NCBI GenBank assembly: GCA_964428655.1
Contig: CAYRYE010000001.1
Span: 218,258-282,257, forward strand
Reading direction: 5' to 3'
Source: an uncultured Gammaproteobacteria bacterium
GTDB taxonomy: Bacteria > Patescibacteriota > Microgenomatia > UBA12405 > JAHJSD01
DNA length: 64,000 nucleotides
Shown here: piece by piece, positions 10,193-48,885 of the stretch
Numbering within the stretch: the stretch's first letter is position 1
How the letters are laid out: every line of letters starts with the position of its first letter
The notes under the pieces: generated by a model
What the model was told of the DNA's origin: nothing
What the model saw: only the letters and a program-made list of their open reading frames with translations
The model's database searches: none
Position numbers and translations under genes: made by a program

Positions 10193-10605
10193 TGCTGCAG
10201 CCGAAAAAAACAAAGTATCGAAAGCAATTCAGAGGCCGAATGAAGGGAAAGAGTGTTGCTGGCTCGAGGATAAATTTTGGCGAGTTTGGCCTAAAGAGTC
10301 TTGGCAGGGGTTGGCTGAGTGCGGCTCAGATTGAAGCAGGCAGAAGGGCGATTACTCACTATACTAAAAGAAAAGCCAAGGTTTGGATTAGGGTTTTTCC
10401 CGATAAACCGGTCACTAAGAAAGCGCCAGGCGCGCCAATGGGAGCGGGAAAAGGCGATATCGATCATTGGGTGGTAGTTGTTAAGCCGGGAAGGATTTTA
10501 TTTGAGTTAAGAGGTGTTCCTTCCGATGTGGCCAAAGAAGCCTTAAGGAGAGCCGGACATAAGTTGCCGTTTAAGACCAAGATTATTAGCAAGGGGAAAG
10601 AATGA
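10189..10605 (+). CDS. rplP: 50S ribosomal protein L16
   Basis: [19 protein letters not shown]... Confidence 0.94.
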
Positions 10606-39722: not shown

Positions 39723-40436
39723 ATGGGTGCTTGTATGGGAGAACGATTAAGGAAACCTGAAATATTAAATTCTCTGGTTCAGCAGAGCTATTCTTTTGAA
39801 TTGTTGTCTCAAATAGATTTATCTCATATCCTTGGCCATTTAATTTCAAGTGGGAGATTAACAGAATTAGGCAGAGAATTTTATATTGATATAAAAGAAC
39901 TTCAAGAATTTCCATTATTAAGGGATTCTCCTCGTGTTGTATTTGCACGCTCTTTAGCGGAAGCAAGAGCAGCAACAAATCAGCTTTTAATAGAAGCTTC
40001 TGGTTTCGTTGGTTATATTACTGGTGGTCTTGAAGGTGGTTTTCTTCAAATTATGTTAAACGGTTTAGTAGCTGGTGGGGAAATAGACACCTTCATCATT
40101 GGCCTCGAAGAAGAAAAATATGTTGCTTCTAAAGGAAGAGGGCCACTTTTTTCTACGCAAGAAAAAGCTTCTTTGTGGATGCAACTGGCTCCAGATAATA
40201 GTGTATTATTTATAATTCCTCCAAGACCAGAGTCAATGTCGCCCGATGATTATTACGATTGGATTTCGGAGTATTTAGGTGTTTTCAAAAATGGTCAAGT
40301 AATTTACTTTGAGTCAAGAGATGACCCCTTCGAAATTATTGCTGCCCACCTTCGAAGAGCCGCCTCGCCAAATCACATTTTATCTGTTTCTTTGGGCGAG
40401 CCTCCTCTTCATGCGTCTGAATTACTAGCCAAATAA
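39723..40436 (+). CDS. Hypothetical protein (237 aa)
   Basis: ORF with plausible coding composition; no recognisable family. Confidence 0.5.
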   Translation: MGACMGERLRKPEILNSLVQQSYSFELLSQIDLSHILGHLISSGRLTELGREFYIDIKELQEFPLLRDSPRVVFARSLAEARAATNQLLIEASGFVGYITGGLEGGFLQIMLNGLVAGGEIDTFIIGLEEEKYVASKGRGPLFSTQEKASLWMQLAPDNSVLFIIPPRPESMSPDDYYDWISEYLGVFKNGQVIYFESRDDPFEIIAAHLRRAASPNHILSVSLGEPPLHASELLAK

Positions 40437-43081: not shown

Positions 43082-43102
43082 AATGGCATTTTAACTTAAT
43101 GA

Positions 43103-43342
43103 GTGTCTTTGGGCAATTTTGATTTTCTTCAGGGCGTTGAGGCAGCTCATGTTAAAATAGCTCATAATGTCTCTTTCTGTTGGGACTGGAGCCTGGCTAA
43201 CCCACATTTAGAATTTAGGCTTGGCTTTGTTATGCCAAGCCCTCGGAAAATTAGAATTATTACTGAGAGAGATGAATTGGGGAGAATTATAAAAGCCAAA
43301 GTGCCAGAGCTAAAGGAGTATGATGAAAAAATTTCAATTTAG
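43103..43342 (+). CDS. Hypothetical protein (79 aa)
   Basis: ORF only. Confidence 0.35.
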   Translation: MSLGNFDFLQGVEAAHVKIAHNVSFCWDWSLANPHLEFRLGFVMPSPRKIRIITERDELGRIIKAKVPELKEYDEKISI

Positions 43343-43428: not shown

Positions 43429-43788
43429 ATGTTGGAAGTTTATAGGAGATGGAAGGGTAAATGTGCTTTTTGTGGAGTATCTGGAACGATTGAACAACAT
43501 CATATAGTTCCTAAGAGCAAGGACCCTTCATTGATAGATGACCCAGATAATTTAGTTCTCCTTTGTAGTAATCATCACACTTTGACACGGAAAGTGAATC
43601 CAGATGGTAAATCTGTTATTTCTTTTCGTGAGATTCAAAATGTTGCAAATTCAAAATATGTGAGTTCAAATAAATTCGGAGTTTATTTTGATGTTCCGCA
43701 GAACAAACGGGTGATATTAGGCGGGAACTCTTGTATAGATTATCCCTACATTTTAGTGGTGAACAATAAACCGTTGGTTGAATTATAG
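43429..43788 (+). CDS. HNH endonuclease (stand-alone)
   Basis: CAFCG...HHIVPKS...NLVLLCSNHH (HNH/His-Me finger). Confidence 0.8.
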   Translation: MLEVYRRWKGKCAFCGVSGTIEQHHIVPKSKDPSLIDDPDNLVLLCSNHHTLTRKVNPDGKSVISFREIQNVANSKYVSSNKFGVYFDVPQNKRVILGGNSCIDYPYILVVNNKPLVEL

Positions 43789-43830: not shown

Positions 43831-44172
43831 GTGACGATGCGTTTTTTTGACGAAGAAAATAATTTCTTGGGAGGAATGTTTGATAACCATTGGGCCTATG
43901 TAATAGGGGAAGATTGGAAGATAAATGTTGAGCCGAATAAAATCGAAATAAGACATAAAGAGAAAAATCTATTTGTGAAAATAGAGAAGAAAGAAAGTTT
44001 GTATATCGCTGGAGCTTTTTACTTTGATGGTATTCGAGTTGAAGCTAGAAATGATGCCCTTGTTCTCCCTAAAAACAACAAGATGATAGGAAATACACTT
44101 GTTGGTTATGCTTTTTCTGTGTTTGGAGATAAACGTAATTCTGGCTTTGCTATCGGAGGAATAAAATTATGA
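43831..44172 (+). CDS. Hypothetical protein (113 aa) immediately downstream of the HNH nuclease
   Basis: ORF only. Confidence 0.4.
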   Translation: MTMRFFDEENNFLGGMFDNHWAYVIGEDWKINVEPNKIEIRHKEKNLFVKIEKKESLYIAGAFYFDGIRVEARNDALVLPKNNKMIGNTLVGYAFSVFGDKRNSGFAIGGIKL

Positions 44173-44386
44173 AAGGAAAAGCCTGAAATGAGTTTGAGTT
44201 GTGGGATAGTGAGAGTGGGAATCGACTTTTTGAAAATAGGCGCAAGCAGGCTGGAGTTCCTCTGTTTTTGCATATCAAAATGCCACCCCCAAGAAAATAT
44301 CCTCAAATTCTAAAAAGAGATAAAAATGGAAGAATAACTGCTTCGAGATTTCCCCCACTAAGTGTTAAAATACATTCATAAGTCAG

Positions 44387-45508
44387 ATGAAAAATATAAT
44401 TTTGAAGAGATATCCCAGAAATAAAGAGAAGTTTGTTAAATTAATTGAGTTTTTCAAAACAATTCTGGATATTTGCGAAGAATTAAACATTAATCCGGTA
44501 ATTAATGGCAGTCTGGCTGTTTTTGCCTATACAAAGAATAAAGGCATGACTGTTAATGATATTGACCTATCAATTTCAGAAGCAGAATACCCCAAAATAA
44601 TGAGCGCATTAGAGGAAAAAGGTATTAAATACAAGTTAAGAGAACGGCATGTTCTAGAGGCTCTAAAAGACGATTTGAGAATTGGATTTGGTTCATCCGA
44701 GCGGTGGTCCAAAGGCTTACCTACAAATTATGAAACTTTACAAATCGACAATTACAAAATTAAAATGCTCAGTCGTGCTGGGTTGATTAAACAATATAAA
44801 AATGCAATGGGAGATAGGAAGAAAAAGTCCTATGAGGATGCTCGTGAAGGAACAAAATATCTGTCCCTTAAAGAAAAATACGGTGTTGTTAAGCCGAACA
44901 AAAAACAAGATCGGATTACCTCTAAGAAGGTAGCCAAGGACCCATTATTAATAGCTAGCACCCATTTCCTAAGGAACGGAGAAAGAGTATTTTTCCGTCC
45001 TCTTGTCAAGAGTGATGCCAGTGCTTTCGGTGAATTTCTAAAAAACTTACAAGAAAAAACAAGAACAAGGTTTGGTCCCCATCCATTGACAGTAGGTGAG
45101 GCTAAAAAAATTTGCAACAGTTTAAATTATTCAGAAATAGTACGGATGATTTTAATCAATATGAATCAAGAAATTATTGGGTATATGATACTTTCATTTC
45201 TGCTTCGGGAAAGCCAGATTGAACGCTACAAGAAATACAGGATTTCGTTAGTTAACCATAAAGATGCTTGTATAGCTCCTGTTGTTACTGATGATTGTCA
45301 AAATAAAGGCACTGGGAGTTTAATGCTGGATGAGACTATAAAAATTGCCCGATCCTTGGGGATTAGACTTCTTGTTTTGTGGCAAGGAGTCCAAGCTAGC
45401 AATGATCGAGGGATACATTATTATGAGAAGTTTGGTTTTAAAAAGAATGGAGAGTTCGATAGATACGGCACTCATAATATTGATATGACATTAAAAATGT
45501 TAAAATAG
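44387..45508 (+). CDS. Two-domain protein: N-terminal LinB/ANT(2'')-like nucleotidyltransferase fused to a C-terminal GNAT acetyltransferase
   Basis: N-terminus GSLAV...VNDIDLSI (minimal NTase G[SG] ... DxD); C-terminus QNKGTGS...YEKFGF (GNAT motifs A/B). Confidence 0.55.
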   Translation: MKNIILKRYPRNKEKFVKLIEFFKTILDICEELNINPVINGSLAVFAYTKNKGMTVNDIDLSISEAEYPKIMSALEEKGIKYKLRERHVLEALKDDLRIGFGSSERWSKGLPTNYETLQIDNYKIKMLSRAGLIKQYKNAMGDRKKKSYEDAREGTKYLSLKEKYGVVKPNKKQDRITSKKVAKDPLLIASTHFLRNGERVFFRPLVKSDASAFGEFLKNLQEKTRTRFGPHPLTVGEAKKICNSLNYSEIVRMILINMNQEIIGYMILSFLLRESQIERYKKYRISLVNHKDACIAPVVTDDCQNKGTGSLMLDETIKIARSLGIRLLVLWQGVQASNDRGIHYYEKFGFKKNGEFDRYGTHNIDMTLKMLK

Positions 45509-47530: not shown

Positions 47531-48522
47531 TGGAAAAGGTTAAGAAGATTGAAATCTCTCATAGAACAATAGTCTTCTCTGTTTTATTTCTCGTCGCTAT
47601 TTGGTTTCTCTATCAAATAAGGGAAATTTTGTTAGCCCTTTTTATTTCCATAATCCTAATGGGAGCTATTAATCCTACCGTTGATCGTTTGGAGAGGTGG
47701 CGCTTGCCTCGTTGGCTGGCAATCCTTTTGATTTATCTTGTTTTATTGAGTTTAATAATTACTGCCATTGCTGGTTTGATTCCTCCCTTAGTTGATCAAA
47801 CCAGTCGATTGGTACAGGTAGTAATTGACCTTTCTGACAGACTTTCCTTTTTGGGACTCTCTTCGGAGAAAATAAGATTACAAATTCAAGAGCTGGGAGC
47901 GTTACCAACTCAGATATTAAAACTGGCAGTTTCGATATTCTCTAATATTATTGCTATCTTTGCCATTTTAGTAATCACTTTTTATTTGCTTCTGGAGCAT
48001 AAAAACTTGGATAGATATCTTTTCTTTCTTTTTGGTCAGAAGCGTAGAGAAAGAGCTAAAAGAGTAGTCGGCAAGCTGGAAAAAAAGCTTGGCGGCTGGG
48101 TCAGGGCAGAGTTACTTTTGATGACAATTATTGGTTTGCTTTCATACATTGGTTTTCGCTTGCTGGATCTCCAATTTGCTTTGCCTCTGGCGATCTTGGC
48201 CGGACTGTTGGAAGTCGTTCCCAATATTGGTCCTACTTTATCAGCGGTGCCAGCTGTTGCCATAGGATTGTTAGAATCATCTCTGATTGGTCTTTTAGTT
48301 TTGGCCTGGACTTTTATTATTCAACAATTGGAAAACAATTTGATTGTTCCTAAGCTAATGCAGAAAACCGTTGGGGTCAATCCTTTGATCACAATTTTGA
48401 CATTAGCGGTTGGTTTTAAACTAGCGGGGGTAATGGGGGCTGTTCTGGCAATTCCAGTTTATCTGGCAATTGAAGTAGTTGTTTCAGAGTTTATCTCTTT
48501 AAAAAAAGCCAAAGGCCAATAA
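47530..48522 (+). CDS. AI-2E family transporter (PerM/YhhT-like membrane protein)
   Basis: About 8 TM helices; AI-2E/UPF0118 architecture. Confidence 0.75.
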   Translation: MEKVKKIEISHRTIVFSVLFLVAIWFLYQIREILLALFISIILMGAINPTVDRLERWRLPRWLAILLIYLVLLSLIITAIAGLIPPLVDQTSRLVQVVIDLSDRLSFLGLSSEKIRLQIQELGALPTQILKLAVSIFSNIIAIFAILVITFYLLLEHKNLDRYLFFLFGQKRRERAKRVVGKLEKKLGGWVRAELLLMTIIGLLSYIGFRLLDLQFALPLAILAGLLEVVPNIGPTLSAVPAVAIGLLESSLIGLLVLAWTFIIQQLENNLIVPKLMQKTVGVNPLITILTLAVGFKLAGVMGAVLAIPVYLAIEVVVSEFISLKKAKGQ

Positions 48523-48540
48523 GCCAGATTCTGTTTTTTC

Positions 48541-48725
48541 CGATATGTTTTATGTATCGGAACTGGATTCATCTATCTATGCTCTCCACCTGGTGTTAAT
48601 GAGGGAGGCTTCTCAACACCGATTTGAGATTGCTCAAAGGAGGGTTGCCTCGTTTCACCCCCGATATGTTTTATGTATCGGGACTCGTCTCTGTGGCCCT
48701 ATCTCGTCCCCCGATATTTCGGGGA
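48541..48725. repeat. Cluster of short perfect hairpins: two copies of CCGATA-TGTTTTATG-TATCGG (48541-48561, 48662-48682) and CCCCGA-TATT-TCGGGG (48710-48725)
   Basis: Seen directly in the sequence, in a 360-bp non-coding stretch. Confidence 0.7.
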
Positions 48726-48885
48726 AGTTCTAACTTGCGTTAGAACACTTTGCCTCCGCGAGTCTGGACTTTCCTGATCGAAATTTCGACCCGAATCCTT
48801 AGCCTTTAACCAGATATATTATACCATGGAATGCAGGAAAAAGCCCCTCATGCGTAAAAGAGAGGCTTTTTCAAGTTAACGAGCT

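Follow-up and report, generated by a model that had tools for sequence, protein, structure and literature searches.

Transferases of the Pol-beta fold are defined by an hG[GS] motif, a [DE]h[DE]h motif and a third carboxylate, h[DE]h, on an adjacent strand, h being a hydrophobic residue (PMC2794190). Catalysis in one small enzyme of this kind, ANT(2'')-Ia, depends on D44, D46 and D86, of which D86 is the catalytic base (PMC4313920). ANT(3'')-Ii/AAC(6')-IId is a known bifunctional enzyme in which an ANT domain is followed by a GNAT acetyltransferase domain (PMC6017855). Here we describe a gene in a 64,000-nucleotide stretch of contig CAYRYE010000001.1 (the window), which encodes an N-terminal nucleotidyltransferase (NT) fused to a C-terminal GNAT in a single open reading frame (ORF). 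A preliminary description had placed this ORF and named its motifs, and both are confirmed: GS...DID corresponds to G41-S42/D58-I-D60, Q..G.G to Q305-G310 and YEKFGF to Y346-F351. Its two domain assignments, an ANT(2'')/LnuA-type small NT fold and a GNAT, also hold in Pfam, AlphaFold2 and Foldseek. We tentatively propose that the protein is a coupled two-headed group-transfer enzyme, in which one substrate, probably a small molecule, is shared by the two heads.

A rare fusion with split-gene counterparts

The NT-GNAT fusion is real and is not an assembly artefact. The same 373-aa protein is read on nine contigs, and the five places shown are five different JGI and Logan samples. Since split two-gene versions exist in relatives, a misassembly or a frameshift joining two genes could have been suspected, as could a decaying pseudogene. 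However, the identical ORF comes from independent samples and assemblers, four diverged orthologues retain it as one ORF with a linker of conserved length, and conservation acts on both halves. AlphaFold2, run on a 122-sequence alignment, gives the full-length fusion a pLDDT of 94.3 and a pTM of 0.85, and the model is confident along its whole length; therefore both domains and their mutual packing are confidently predicted. Because of the independent recoveries, we regard an artefact as effectively refuted.

A search for the fusion in other genomes showed that the architecture is rare. Only five full-length orthologues were found among 5.8 billion clustered proteins, about 63-75% identical overall to the window protein, and none was found in 185,579 species-representative genomes. 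The same genome scan returned GNAT-only relatives at 31-36% identity, from Saccharibacteria metagenome-assembled genomes (MAGs), Streptomyces and one further MAG. Some relatives sit on contigs labelled as 0.1-µm groundwater fractions. Together with a GC content of 38.5%, a very basic proteome and contigs of 428-548 kb, this hints at a Patescibacteria/CPR origin. The N-half belongs to a family whose stand-alone members are about 169 aa long. Of 414 matches in a word-indexed search, those listed are 47-63% identical, and an exhaustive search of 1.84 billion representatives gave 236 cluster representatives at E <= 0.001. Stand-alone GNAT relatives of the C-half are 57-68% identical to it, within a broad family at 31-43%.

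The closest stand-alone NTs are P0020 (L019-L021), P0021 (L103) and P0090 (L022), where P and L numbers are our handles for proteins and metagenomic loci. They are 60-63% identical to the N-half, and each gene lies directly upstream of a GNAT gene. The GNATs of L019 and L022 are 57-58% identical to the C-half; that of L103 ends at the contig end and matches the C-half profile with E 5e-37. In L019 and L103 the stop and start codons of the pair overlap by 4 bp (ATGA), and in L022 there is a gap of a few bases. The split module is probably translationally coupled. Since the nearest stand-alone NTs adjoin an orthologous GNAT, the window gene is the fused form of a pre-existing two-gene module. 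The linker of the fusion, compared with the junctions of L019, L022 and L103, is 40-80% identical among orthologues vs 57-84% in the two domains. Split and fused forms together make a classical Rosetta-stone link between the NT and the GNAT, and because close relatives carry both as overlapping separate genes, the two parts probably work together.

At least three further fusions join the NT family to unrelated GNATs. The domain order is the same in P0330 (its cluster contains a protein of a Micrarchaeaceae archaeon) and in P0337, and it is reversed in P0261. These three fusions arose independently.

Other arrangements were seen among the relatives. The NT family also occurs as NT-NUDIX, as NT followed by another Pol-beta NT, as GrpB-NT and, in two proteins, with unannotated N-terminal extensions. 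Of the stand-alone GNATs, P0132 and P0137 are closest to the C-half, and upstream of each lies another, different GNAT gene in place of an NT gene, giving tandem GNAT-GNAT pairs. At the split-pair locus L022 (92-1761), an AAA_33 P-loop kinase-like gene (a weak match) precedes the NT and the GNAT, so that three putative group-transfer enzymes stand in a row. PADLOC gave no defense-system match for the fusion or for the split pair.

The two domains, motif III and the proposed function

Its structural matches make the N-half a small two-subdomain Pol-beta-fold NT of about 170 aa. The NT part that had been preliminarily described is thus present, with a core and a helical subdomain and not with the size of about 100 aa first given. 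The nearest solved folds are ANT(2'')-Ia and LnuA by fold comparison, with Foldseek in agreement; further matches are TglT, FKRP, MenT4 and RNA nucleotidyltransferases. Identity to the solved matches is 11-21%, and 13-16% to ANT(2'')-Ia and LnuA. The first two motifs were aligned to ANT(2'')-Ia by hhalign, for which the ANT(2'')-Ia sequence was checked at seven residue numbers, all given in PMC4313920. G41 is invariant, S42 is found in 56 of the 57 NT family sequences and helix 42-49 begins there in the AlphaFold2 model. The D58/D60 motif is invariant (57/57), and E65, H88, D96 and E105 are retained alongside these motifs. Pfam PF10706 (Aminoglyc_resit) matches residues 25-89 with 23.8 bits against a gathering cutoff of 21, covering only profile positions 4-68 of 149; the stand-alone relative P0013 scores 29.5 bits over positions 3-142.

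The C-half is an ordinary, intact GNAT. Pfam Acetyltransf_1, _7 and _3 match residues 200-353 (PF00583, 36.8 bits vs 20.7; PF13508, 30.2 vs 27). Among GNAT relatives (alignment A4), Q305 is invariant and position 310 is G or A; Y346, K348, F349, G350 and F351 are also invariant, and phmmer aligns Y346 to the Tyr of RimI 'ALYESLGF'. Foldseek gave 475 matches at E <= 1e-3, and the 50 listed are all GNATs. The best are 4nxy, 9it0 and 4u5y, Pat-type GNAT domains with E 4e-11 to 1.5e-10, and TMt is 0.83-0.84 for the isolated domains 4nxy and 4u5y; over the matches to S. lividans PAT and E. coli PatZ, E is 4e-11 to 3e-10. M. tuberculosis Rv0998 stands lower in the list, with generic GNATs by dozens close behind. 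The resemblance to Pat is only marginally above that to generic GNATs (E 4e-11 vs about 4e-9). By sequence, Pat similarity is not significant, with phmmer E 0.1-0.7 over residues 194-357 and an NCBIfam Pat E of 0.17; the variable N-terminal region of the GNAT, searched alone against PDB, had no match. Sequence profiles do not assign the domain to a GNAT subfamily.

These matches bear on whether the protein is a bifunctional aminoglycoside or lincosamide resistance enzyme, combining ANT-type O-adenylylation with AAC-type N-acetylation. Such a role is in line with the nearest solved folds of the N-half, with the PF10706 match above its cutoff and with the ANT-AAC precedent of ANT(3'')-Ii/AAC(6')-IId. 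In addition, a stand-alone NT of the family, at L011, has an AAC(3)-family gene four genes away. However, identity to ANT(2'')-Ia and LnuA is low, the carboxylate equivalent to D86 is missing, and the GNAT stands closest to Pat, RimI or generic GNATs and not to AAC families. The NCBIfam resistance models remain far below their cutoff of 300 (Lnu(P), 14.0 bits; Lnu(A), 13.2 bits), no curated AAC or ANT model matches the fusion protein, and no mobile-element or resistance-island context was found around the gene. The fusion protein is also strongly basic, with a net charge of +24 vs -16 in ANT(2'')-Ia. This last argument carries little weight: the genome as a whole is just as basic (median pI, isoelectric point, about 9.7), and for this reason charge was down-weighted as evidence against aminoglycoside binding. 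The drug-resistance reading is weakened by these findings, and we consider it very improbable; nothing shows the fusion to be a drug-resistance enzyme.

What we observe directly is the fold, the motifs, the rarity of the architecture, the split counterparts and the independent, recurrent fusions. From these we infer activity of both heads, a shared substrate and compensation by E91 for a lost carboxylate. On the coupled two-headed reading, one polypeptide would have arisen from two group-transfer enzymes, which the nearest relatives would make from two overlapping, co-translated genes. The GNAT head would bind acetyl-CoA via Q305-x-x-G308-x-G310 and acetylate an amine, with Y346 as the general acid. 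The NT head, of the ANT(2'')/LnuA/TM1012 type, would hold nucleoside triphosphate (NTP)-Mg through G41-S42 and D58-x-D60 and nucleotidylate a hydroxyl, possibly with E91, which would replace the third carboxylate from the strand next to the canonical site. The helical subdomain, which in ANT(2'') and LnuA forms the acceptor cleft, is retained here. The common substrate would be a small molecule with amine and hydroxyl groups, and the role would be one of modification or detoxification. An antibiotic is only one possibility among such substrates.

The neighbors of the stand-alone NT family, in a census of 80 metagenomic loci, suggest small-molecule or nucleotide chemistry. The commonest are GDPD (7 of 32 downstream genes) and DUF4260 (7 of 31 upstream genes), and HIT, NUDIX, DinB_2, methyltransferases and aldo-keto reductase also occur. 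As a separate observation, many stand-alone members with Q91/E100/D102 lie in a conserved three-gene arrangement, DUF4260-NT-GDPD, with gaps of -4 to 18 nt (L011, L028, L029, L040, L041 and L043, also L026, L035, L048 and others); its GDPD is a 239-aa glycerophosphodiester phosphodiesterase. The trio of L011 lies within a sugar or nonulosonic-acid cluster with NeuB, epimerases, a GT4 glycosyltransferase and the AAC(3)-family gene.

Several observations weigh against the coupled two-headed enzyme, and the first is the state of motif III. The deep family profile in hhalign aligns D86 of ANT(2'')-Ia with position 102, and strand alternation with the hEh pattern puts it at position 100. Because the register of D86 differs between the shallow and the deep hhalign profile, we give both candidate positions. 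The stand-alone NT family has the pattern Q91, V-E100-L-D102, with an acid at position 100 in 54 of 57 close members. The window fusion and all its orthologues have E91 and I-G100-F-G102 (S100 in P0005). Thus, of the catalytic DxD/E signature that the preliminary description had looked to, the DxD is present, and the canonical h[DE]h third carboxylate is absent, with Gly at both positions. Among about 260 family members, only the five fusions, P0020, P0021, P0090, the fragment P0241 and the outlier P0279 lack an acid at both 100 and 102, and the GNAT-linked clade is the only sizeable clade of the NT family to do so.

The remaining points against it are of several kinds. Sequence and topology are the basis on which E91 is proposed to compensate. 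Searching PDB sequences with the N-half profile gave nothing meaningful, ANT(2'')-Ia included, and neither this search nor the NCBIfam models link the N-half at the sequence level to any characterized enzyme; the low scores of the resistance models and the charge difference count here too. The best structural matches of the GNAT are protein lysine acetyltransferases (S. lividans PAT, E. coli PatZ) and not small-molecule enzymes. The N-half evolves somewhat faster than the C-half (57-75% vs 68-84% identity among orthologues), and close GNAT relatives have no NT partner in L012, L105 and L106. In the neighbor census, GNAT neighbors outside the E91/G100/G102 clade are not above chance (about 2/60). 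Since there is no general adjacency outside that clade, we dropped the notion of a partnership with GNATs across the whole NT family.

The loss at 100/102 is accompanied by a change elsewhere. With the exception of P0279, the sequences with no acid at either position have Glu at 91 in place of the family's Gln. Residues 91 and 100 covary: K, E or R is found at 91 in all 29 sequences that are non-acidic at 100, vs 22 of 227 otherwise (Fisher p = 1e-24, phylogeny not corrected for). In the structural model, these two residues are expected to pair across the hairpin predicted at 89-94/97-103. All eight members of the E91/G100/G102 clade with known context are GNAT-linked, five fused and three split. 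In clustering by the unweighted pair group method (UPGMA) on p-distances, these eight group exclusively even when the diagnostic columns are left out, and their nearest neighbors are Q-[E/D]-G types. The clade associated with the GNAT is therefore also the one in which motif III was remodelled. There are two ways to read this: the carboxylate was shifted to E91, or transferase activity was lost from the domain with its NTP-Mg binding residues retained.

If transferase activity was lost, only the GNAT would be catalytic, and the NT fold would be a non-catalytic binder of nucleotide or acceptor that regulates the GNAT or recruits its substrate, maybe a protein. The use of inactive NT-fold domains for binding is documented (Kuchta et al. 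2009, PMC2794190), and here both candidate positions were lost exactly in the GNAT-linked clade. Protein lysine acetyltransferases of the Pat type likewise have N-terminal sensor domains; the best Foldseek matches are the GNAT domains of PAT, PatZ and Rv0998, and both the Foldseek and the weak phmmer alignments span the whole domain. Moreover, the pTM of the fusion implies a fixed inter-domain arrangement. However, strict retention of G41-S42, D58-x-D60, E65, H88, D96 and E105 is unexpected for a pure binder, and the gain of E91 resembles compensation. The Pat resemblance is marginal and does not extend, at the sequence level, to the N-terminal part that determines specificity, and the other NT-GNAT fusions (P0330, P0337 and P0261) keep the canonical E100/D102. 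We thus judge a purely binding NT domain somewhat unlikely, and it is the alternative to which we give most weight.

Whichever way this is decided, the locus has broader meaning. Fusions of separately encoded partners are among the few functional handles on uncharacterized genes in uncultivated, reduced-genome bacteria. Here the split and fused forms tie a poorly known branch of ANT(2'')/LnuA-like NTs, none of whose 236 cluster representatives is characterized, to a specific GNAT lineage. This link is a testable functional hypothesis for two uncharacterized protein lineages. The clade is also a natural experiment in which to ask if the third catalytic carboxylate of a Pol-beta-fold enzyme can be relocated. 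Should the substrate prove to be an antibiotic, the fusion would add a new bifunctional architecture for resistance, from an environmental reservoir; should it prove to be a protein or RNA, the NT would be a new class of accessory domain for GNATs. At present the fusion is a well-defined candidate and not a discovery of new biology.

Genomic context of the fusion gene

The stop codon of the fusion lies 7 nt before ychF, which is followed by miaA and an AI-2E transporter gene, each overlapping or abutting its predecessor. The gene had been placed in a variable patch. This is true of the upstream DNA, where the window has the methyltransferase gene on the opposite strand, the HNH gene and the 113-aa ORF, and where the 74%-identical relative L006 has the arginyl-tRNA synthetase (ArgRS) gene instead. 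GC content is 33-35% across 41.6-45 kb vs 37-41% in the flanks. It is not true of the fusion gene itself: because the order ychF-miaA is kept downstream in L006, the variable patch is real but ends at the fusion gene. Promoter and terminator scans of the region did no better than on shuffled sequence.

The methyltransferase upstream had been called a THUMP methyltransferase. Its methyltransferase domain is of the Trm14/TIGR01177 type, and no THUMP domain was detected in the N-terminal 175 of its 430 aa. Its best PADLOC match is mad2, of a methylation-associated defense system (E 3e-20), and NCBIfam MAD2 matches weakly. It may be an RNA methyltransferase or defense-related.

A small conserved ORF lies directly upstream of the fusion in three of the four orthologues with upstream sequence. 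Its core of about 35-50 aa reads roughly 'P.P.K.R.I.ERdeLGrIIk.KvPeL'. Further copies of the element precede the HNH gene in the window and a ParB-CE-domain gene in L023; no other copy was found in the window or in the other fetched loci, and there was no Pfam or Rfam match and no conserved RNA fold. An RNA element was considered and rejected, since Rfam gave no match, no structure is conserved and the substitution pattern looks coding. The HNH gene and the 113-aa ORF lie between the two window copies and both are absent from L006; this segment looks like an inserted cassette with a duplication of the upstream sequence. The small element could be a leader or an antitoxin-like small gene before accessory genes, or a cassette-boundary repeat. 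The small ORF, which may belong to the NT-GNAT module, is absent from the split pairs and from P0002 loci.

This small ORF raises the question of a toxin-like effector, in which a MenT-like NT and a GNAT would act on tRNA, aminoacyl-tRNA or other nucleic acid and would be restrained by the upstream ORF. MenT1 is preceded by such a short ORF, which encodes a 68-aa antitoxin (PMC7450476). The recurrence of the small ORF before the fusion, its extra copies before the HNH and ParB-CE genes, the strongly basic protein and the two small overlapping genes of the split pair would all fit. On the other hand, Pfam AbiEii/DUF1814 and PADLOC gave no match, and the GNAT toxins TacT, AtaT and KacT are absent from the top 50 structural matches of the C-half. 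The loci of the split pairs and of P0002 lack the small ORF, the charge equals the genome background, and the gene sits immediately before ychF in synteny with housekeeping genes. We therefore hold a toxin to be decidedly unlikely.

A bolder version joins several of these elements. In it, the active site would have been re-engineered (carboxylate from 100/102 to 91) within a hitherto undescribed, obligate NT-GNAT machine. Its NT head would gate a Pat-like macromolecule acetyltransferase through nucleotide sensing or AMPylation, or both heads would modify tRNA or a translation component, with the small ORF neutralizing them. If true, the latter form would amount to a new mix-and-match system of small-ORF/effector cassettes in ultra-small bacteria. 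We think this version quite unlikely.

Some further features were recorded nearby. An ORF at 48545-48733 (+) overlaps the RNase P RNA gene and is probably spurious. In L006 (5923-7650), ArgRS is called with 505 aa and is followed by a separate 46-aa ORF ending '...GLGILGIEALEKM'. The 46-aa ORF resembles the genuine C-terminus of ArgRS, and a frameshift or a sequencing error is suggested. Window DNA at 43082-43300 weakly resembles the ArgRS region of L006. An unannotated 237-aa ORF at 39723-40436 has a paralogue-like partial match at 10363-10557 (31% over 70 aa, tblastn E 1.5e-5).

Table. Features of the fusion gene, its neighbors and related loci. Positions are those of the window unless a locus is named.
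Feature	Position	Strand	Details
NT-GNAT fusion ORF, complete, 373 aa	44387..45508, including stop codon	+	ATG start, TAG stop
NT-fold domain, residues 1-170	44387..44896	+	Pol-beta core and helical subdomain (helices 130-148, 152-168)
G41-S42	44507..44512	+	hG[GS] nucleotide-binding motif, start of helix 2; aligned by hhalign to G27-G28 of ANT(2'')-Ia
D58-I-D60	44558..44566	+	[DE]h[DE]h metal-binding motif, strand 58-63; aligned by hhalign to catalytic D44/D46 of ANT(2'')-Ia
Beta-hairpin 89-103	44651..44695	+	E91, nt 44657-44659; G100, nt 44684-44686; G102, nt 44690-44692
Linker, residues 171-190	44897..44956	+	Least conserved segment; matches stop/start junction of split pair
GNAT acetyltransferase domain, residues 191-373	44957..45505	+	Pfam, Foldseek
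Q305-N-K-G308-T-G310	45299..45316	+	Acetyl-CoA pyrophosphate-binding loop (Q/R-x-x-G-x-G/A)
Y346-E-K-F-G-F	45422..45439	+	Motif B; phmmer alignment to RimI 2cnm
Small conserved ORF, 60 aa	44199..44381	+	Conserved core nt 44280-44378; stop 5 nt before fusion ATG
Small conserved element, copies	window 43103-43342, 44199-44381; L023 51-200, 1354-1563; L104 134-292
Unannotated 113-aa ORF	43831-44172
HNH endonuclease, stand-alone	43429-43788		PF13391, PF01844
Methyltransferase, 430 aa	41789-43081	-	TIGR01177, Trm14, EmtA, UPF0020 over residues 176-361 only
Bacterial RNase P RNA class A	48504-48810	-	106 bits vs gathering score 100; between AI-2E transporter and DUF4446 genes
Tandem GNAT-GNAT pairs	L012 4630-5615; L106 1512-2678
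Proteins with other NT-family architectures			P0304, P0333, P0377, P0288, P0346

Comparison with known systems

With MenT/AbiEii (DUF1814) the fusion shares only the fold; its gene is conserved beside housekeeping genes, PF08843 (DUF1814) gave no match at E <= 1, and the C-terminal motifs III and IV specific to those toxins were not established. No RHH/DUF1778 antitoxin, as in type II toxin-antitoxin systems with GNAT toxins, was found at the fusion locus by Pfam or PADLOC. TM1012 (PDB 2ewr) and the LicD/fukutin-type NT-fold phosphotransferases are also comparable in fold; TM1012 is itself uncharacterized, the fusion clade has a different neighborhood, and there is no LicD Pfam match for the fusion. 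The Pat-type enzymes (S. lividans PAT, E. coli PatZ, M. tuberculosis Rv0998) share with it an N-terminal accessory domain and a C-terminal GNAT, but their accessory domain is acyl-CoA-synthetase-like, cNMP-binding or ACT and here it is an NT fold.

ANT(2'')-Ia (AadB) and Lnu(A) belong to the same size class as the N-half, about 160-177 aa, with aligned hG[GS] and DxD motifs and with the PF10706 threshold passed. They differ from it in overall sequence, in the D86 position, which is Gly here, and in being strongly acidic where the fusion is basic; in addition, the NT here is fused to a GNAT and resistance models do not match it.

The ANT(3'') domain is of the AadA-type family and not of the ANT(2'')/PF10706 type. 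As one-chain bifunctional modifying enzymes, ANT(3'')-Ii/AAC(6')-IId of Serratia marcescens and AAC(6')-Ie-APH(2'')-Ia can both be likened to the fusion. With the former it shares an N-terminal NT and a C-terminal GNAT, an origin by fusion of adjacent genes and the concept of two activities on one substrate class. In that enzyme, however, the GNAT is of the AAC(6')-Ib type. Such enzymes are borne on integrons or plasmids and their drug substrates are proven, whereas the fusion here is chromosomal, beside ychF-miaA, in an uncultivated organism. Because ANT(3'')-Ii/AAC(6')-IId was already known, the domain order, which had seemed unfamiliar, is not novel; the pairing of families is new. As far as can be told, a PF10706-type NT paired with this GNAT lineage, with a split counterpart and a remodelled motif III, is undescribed.

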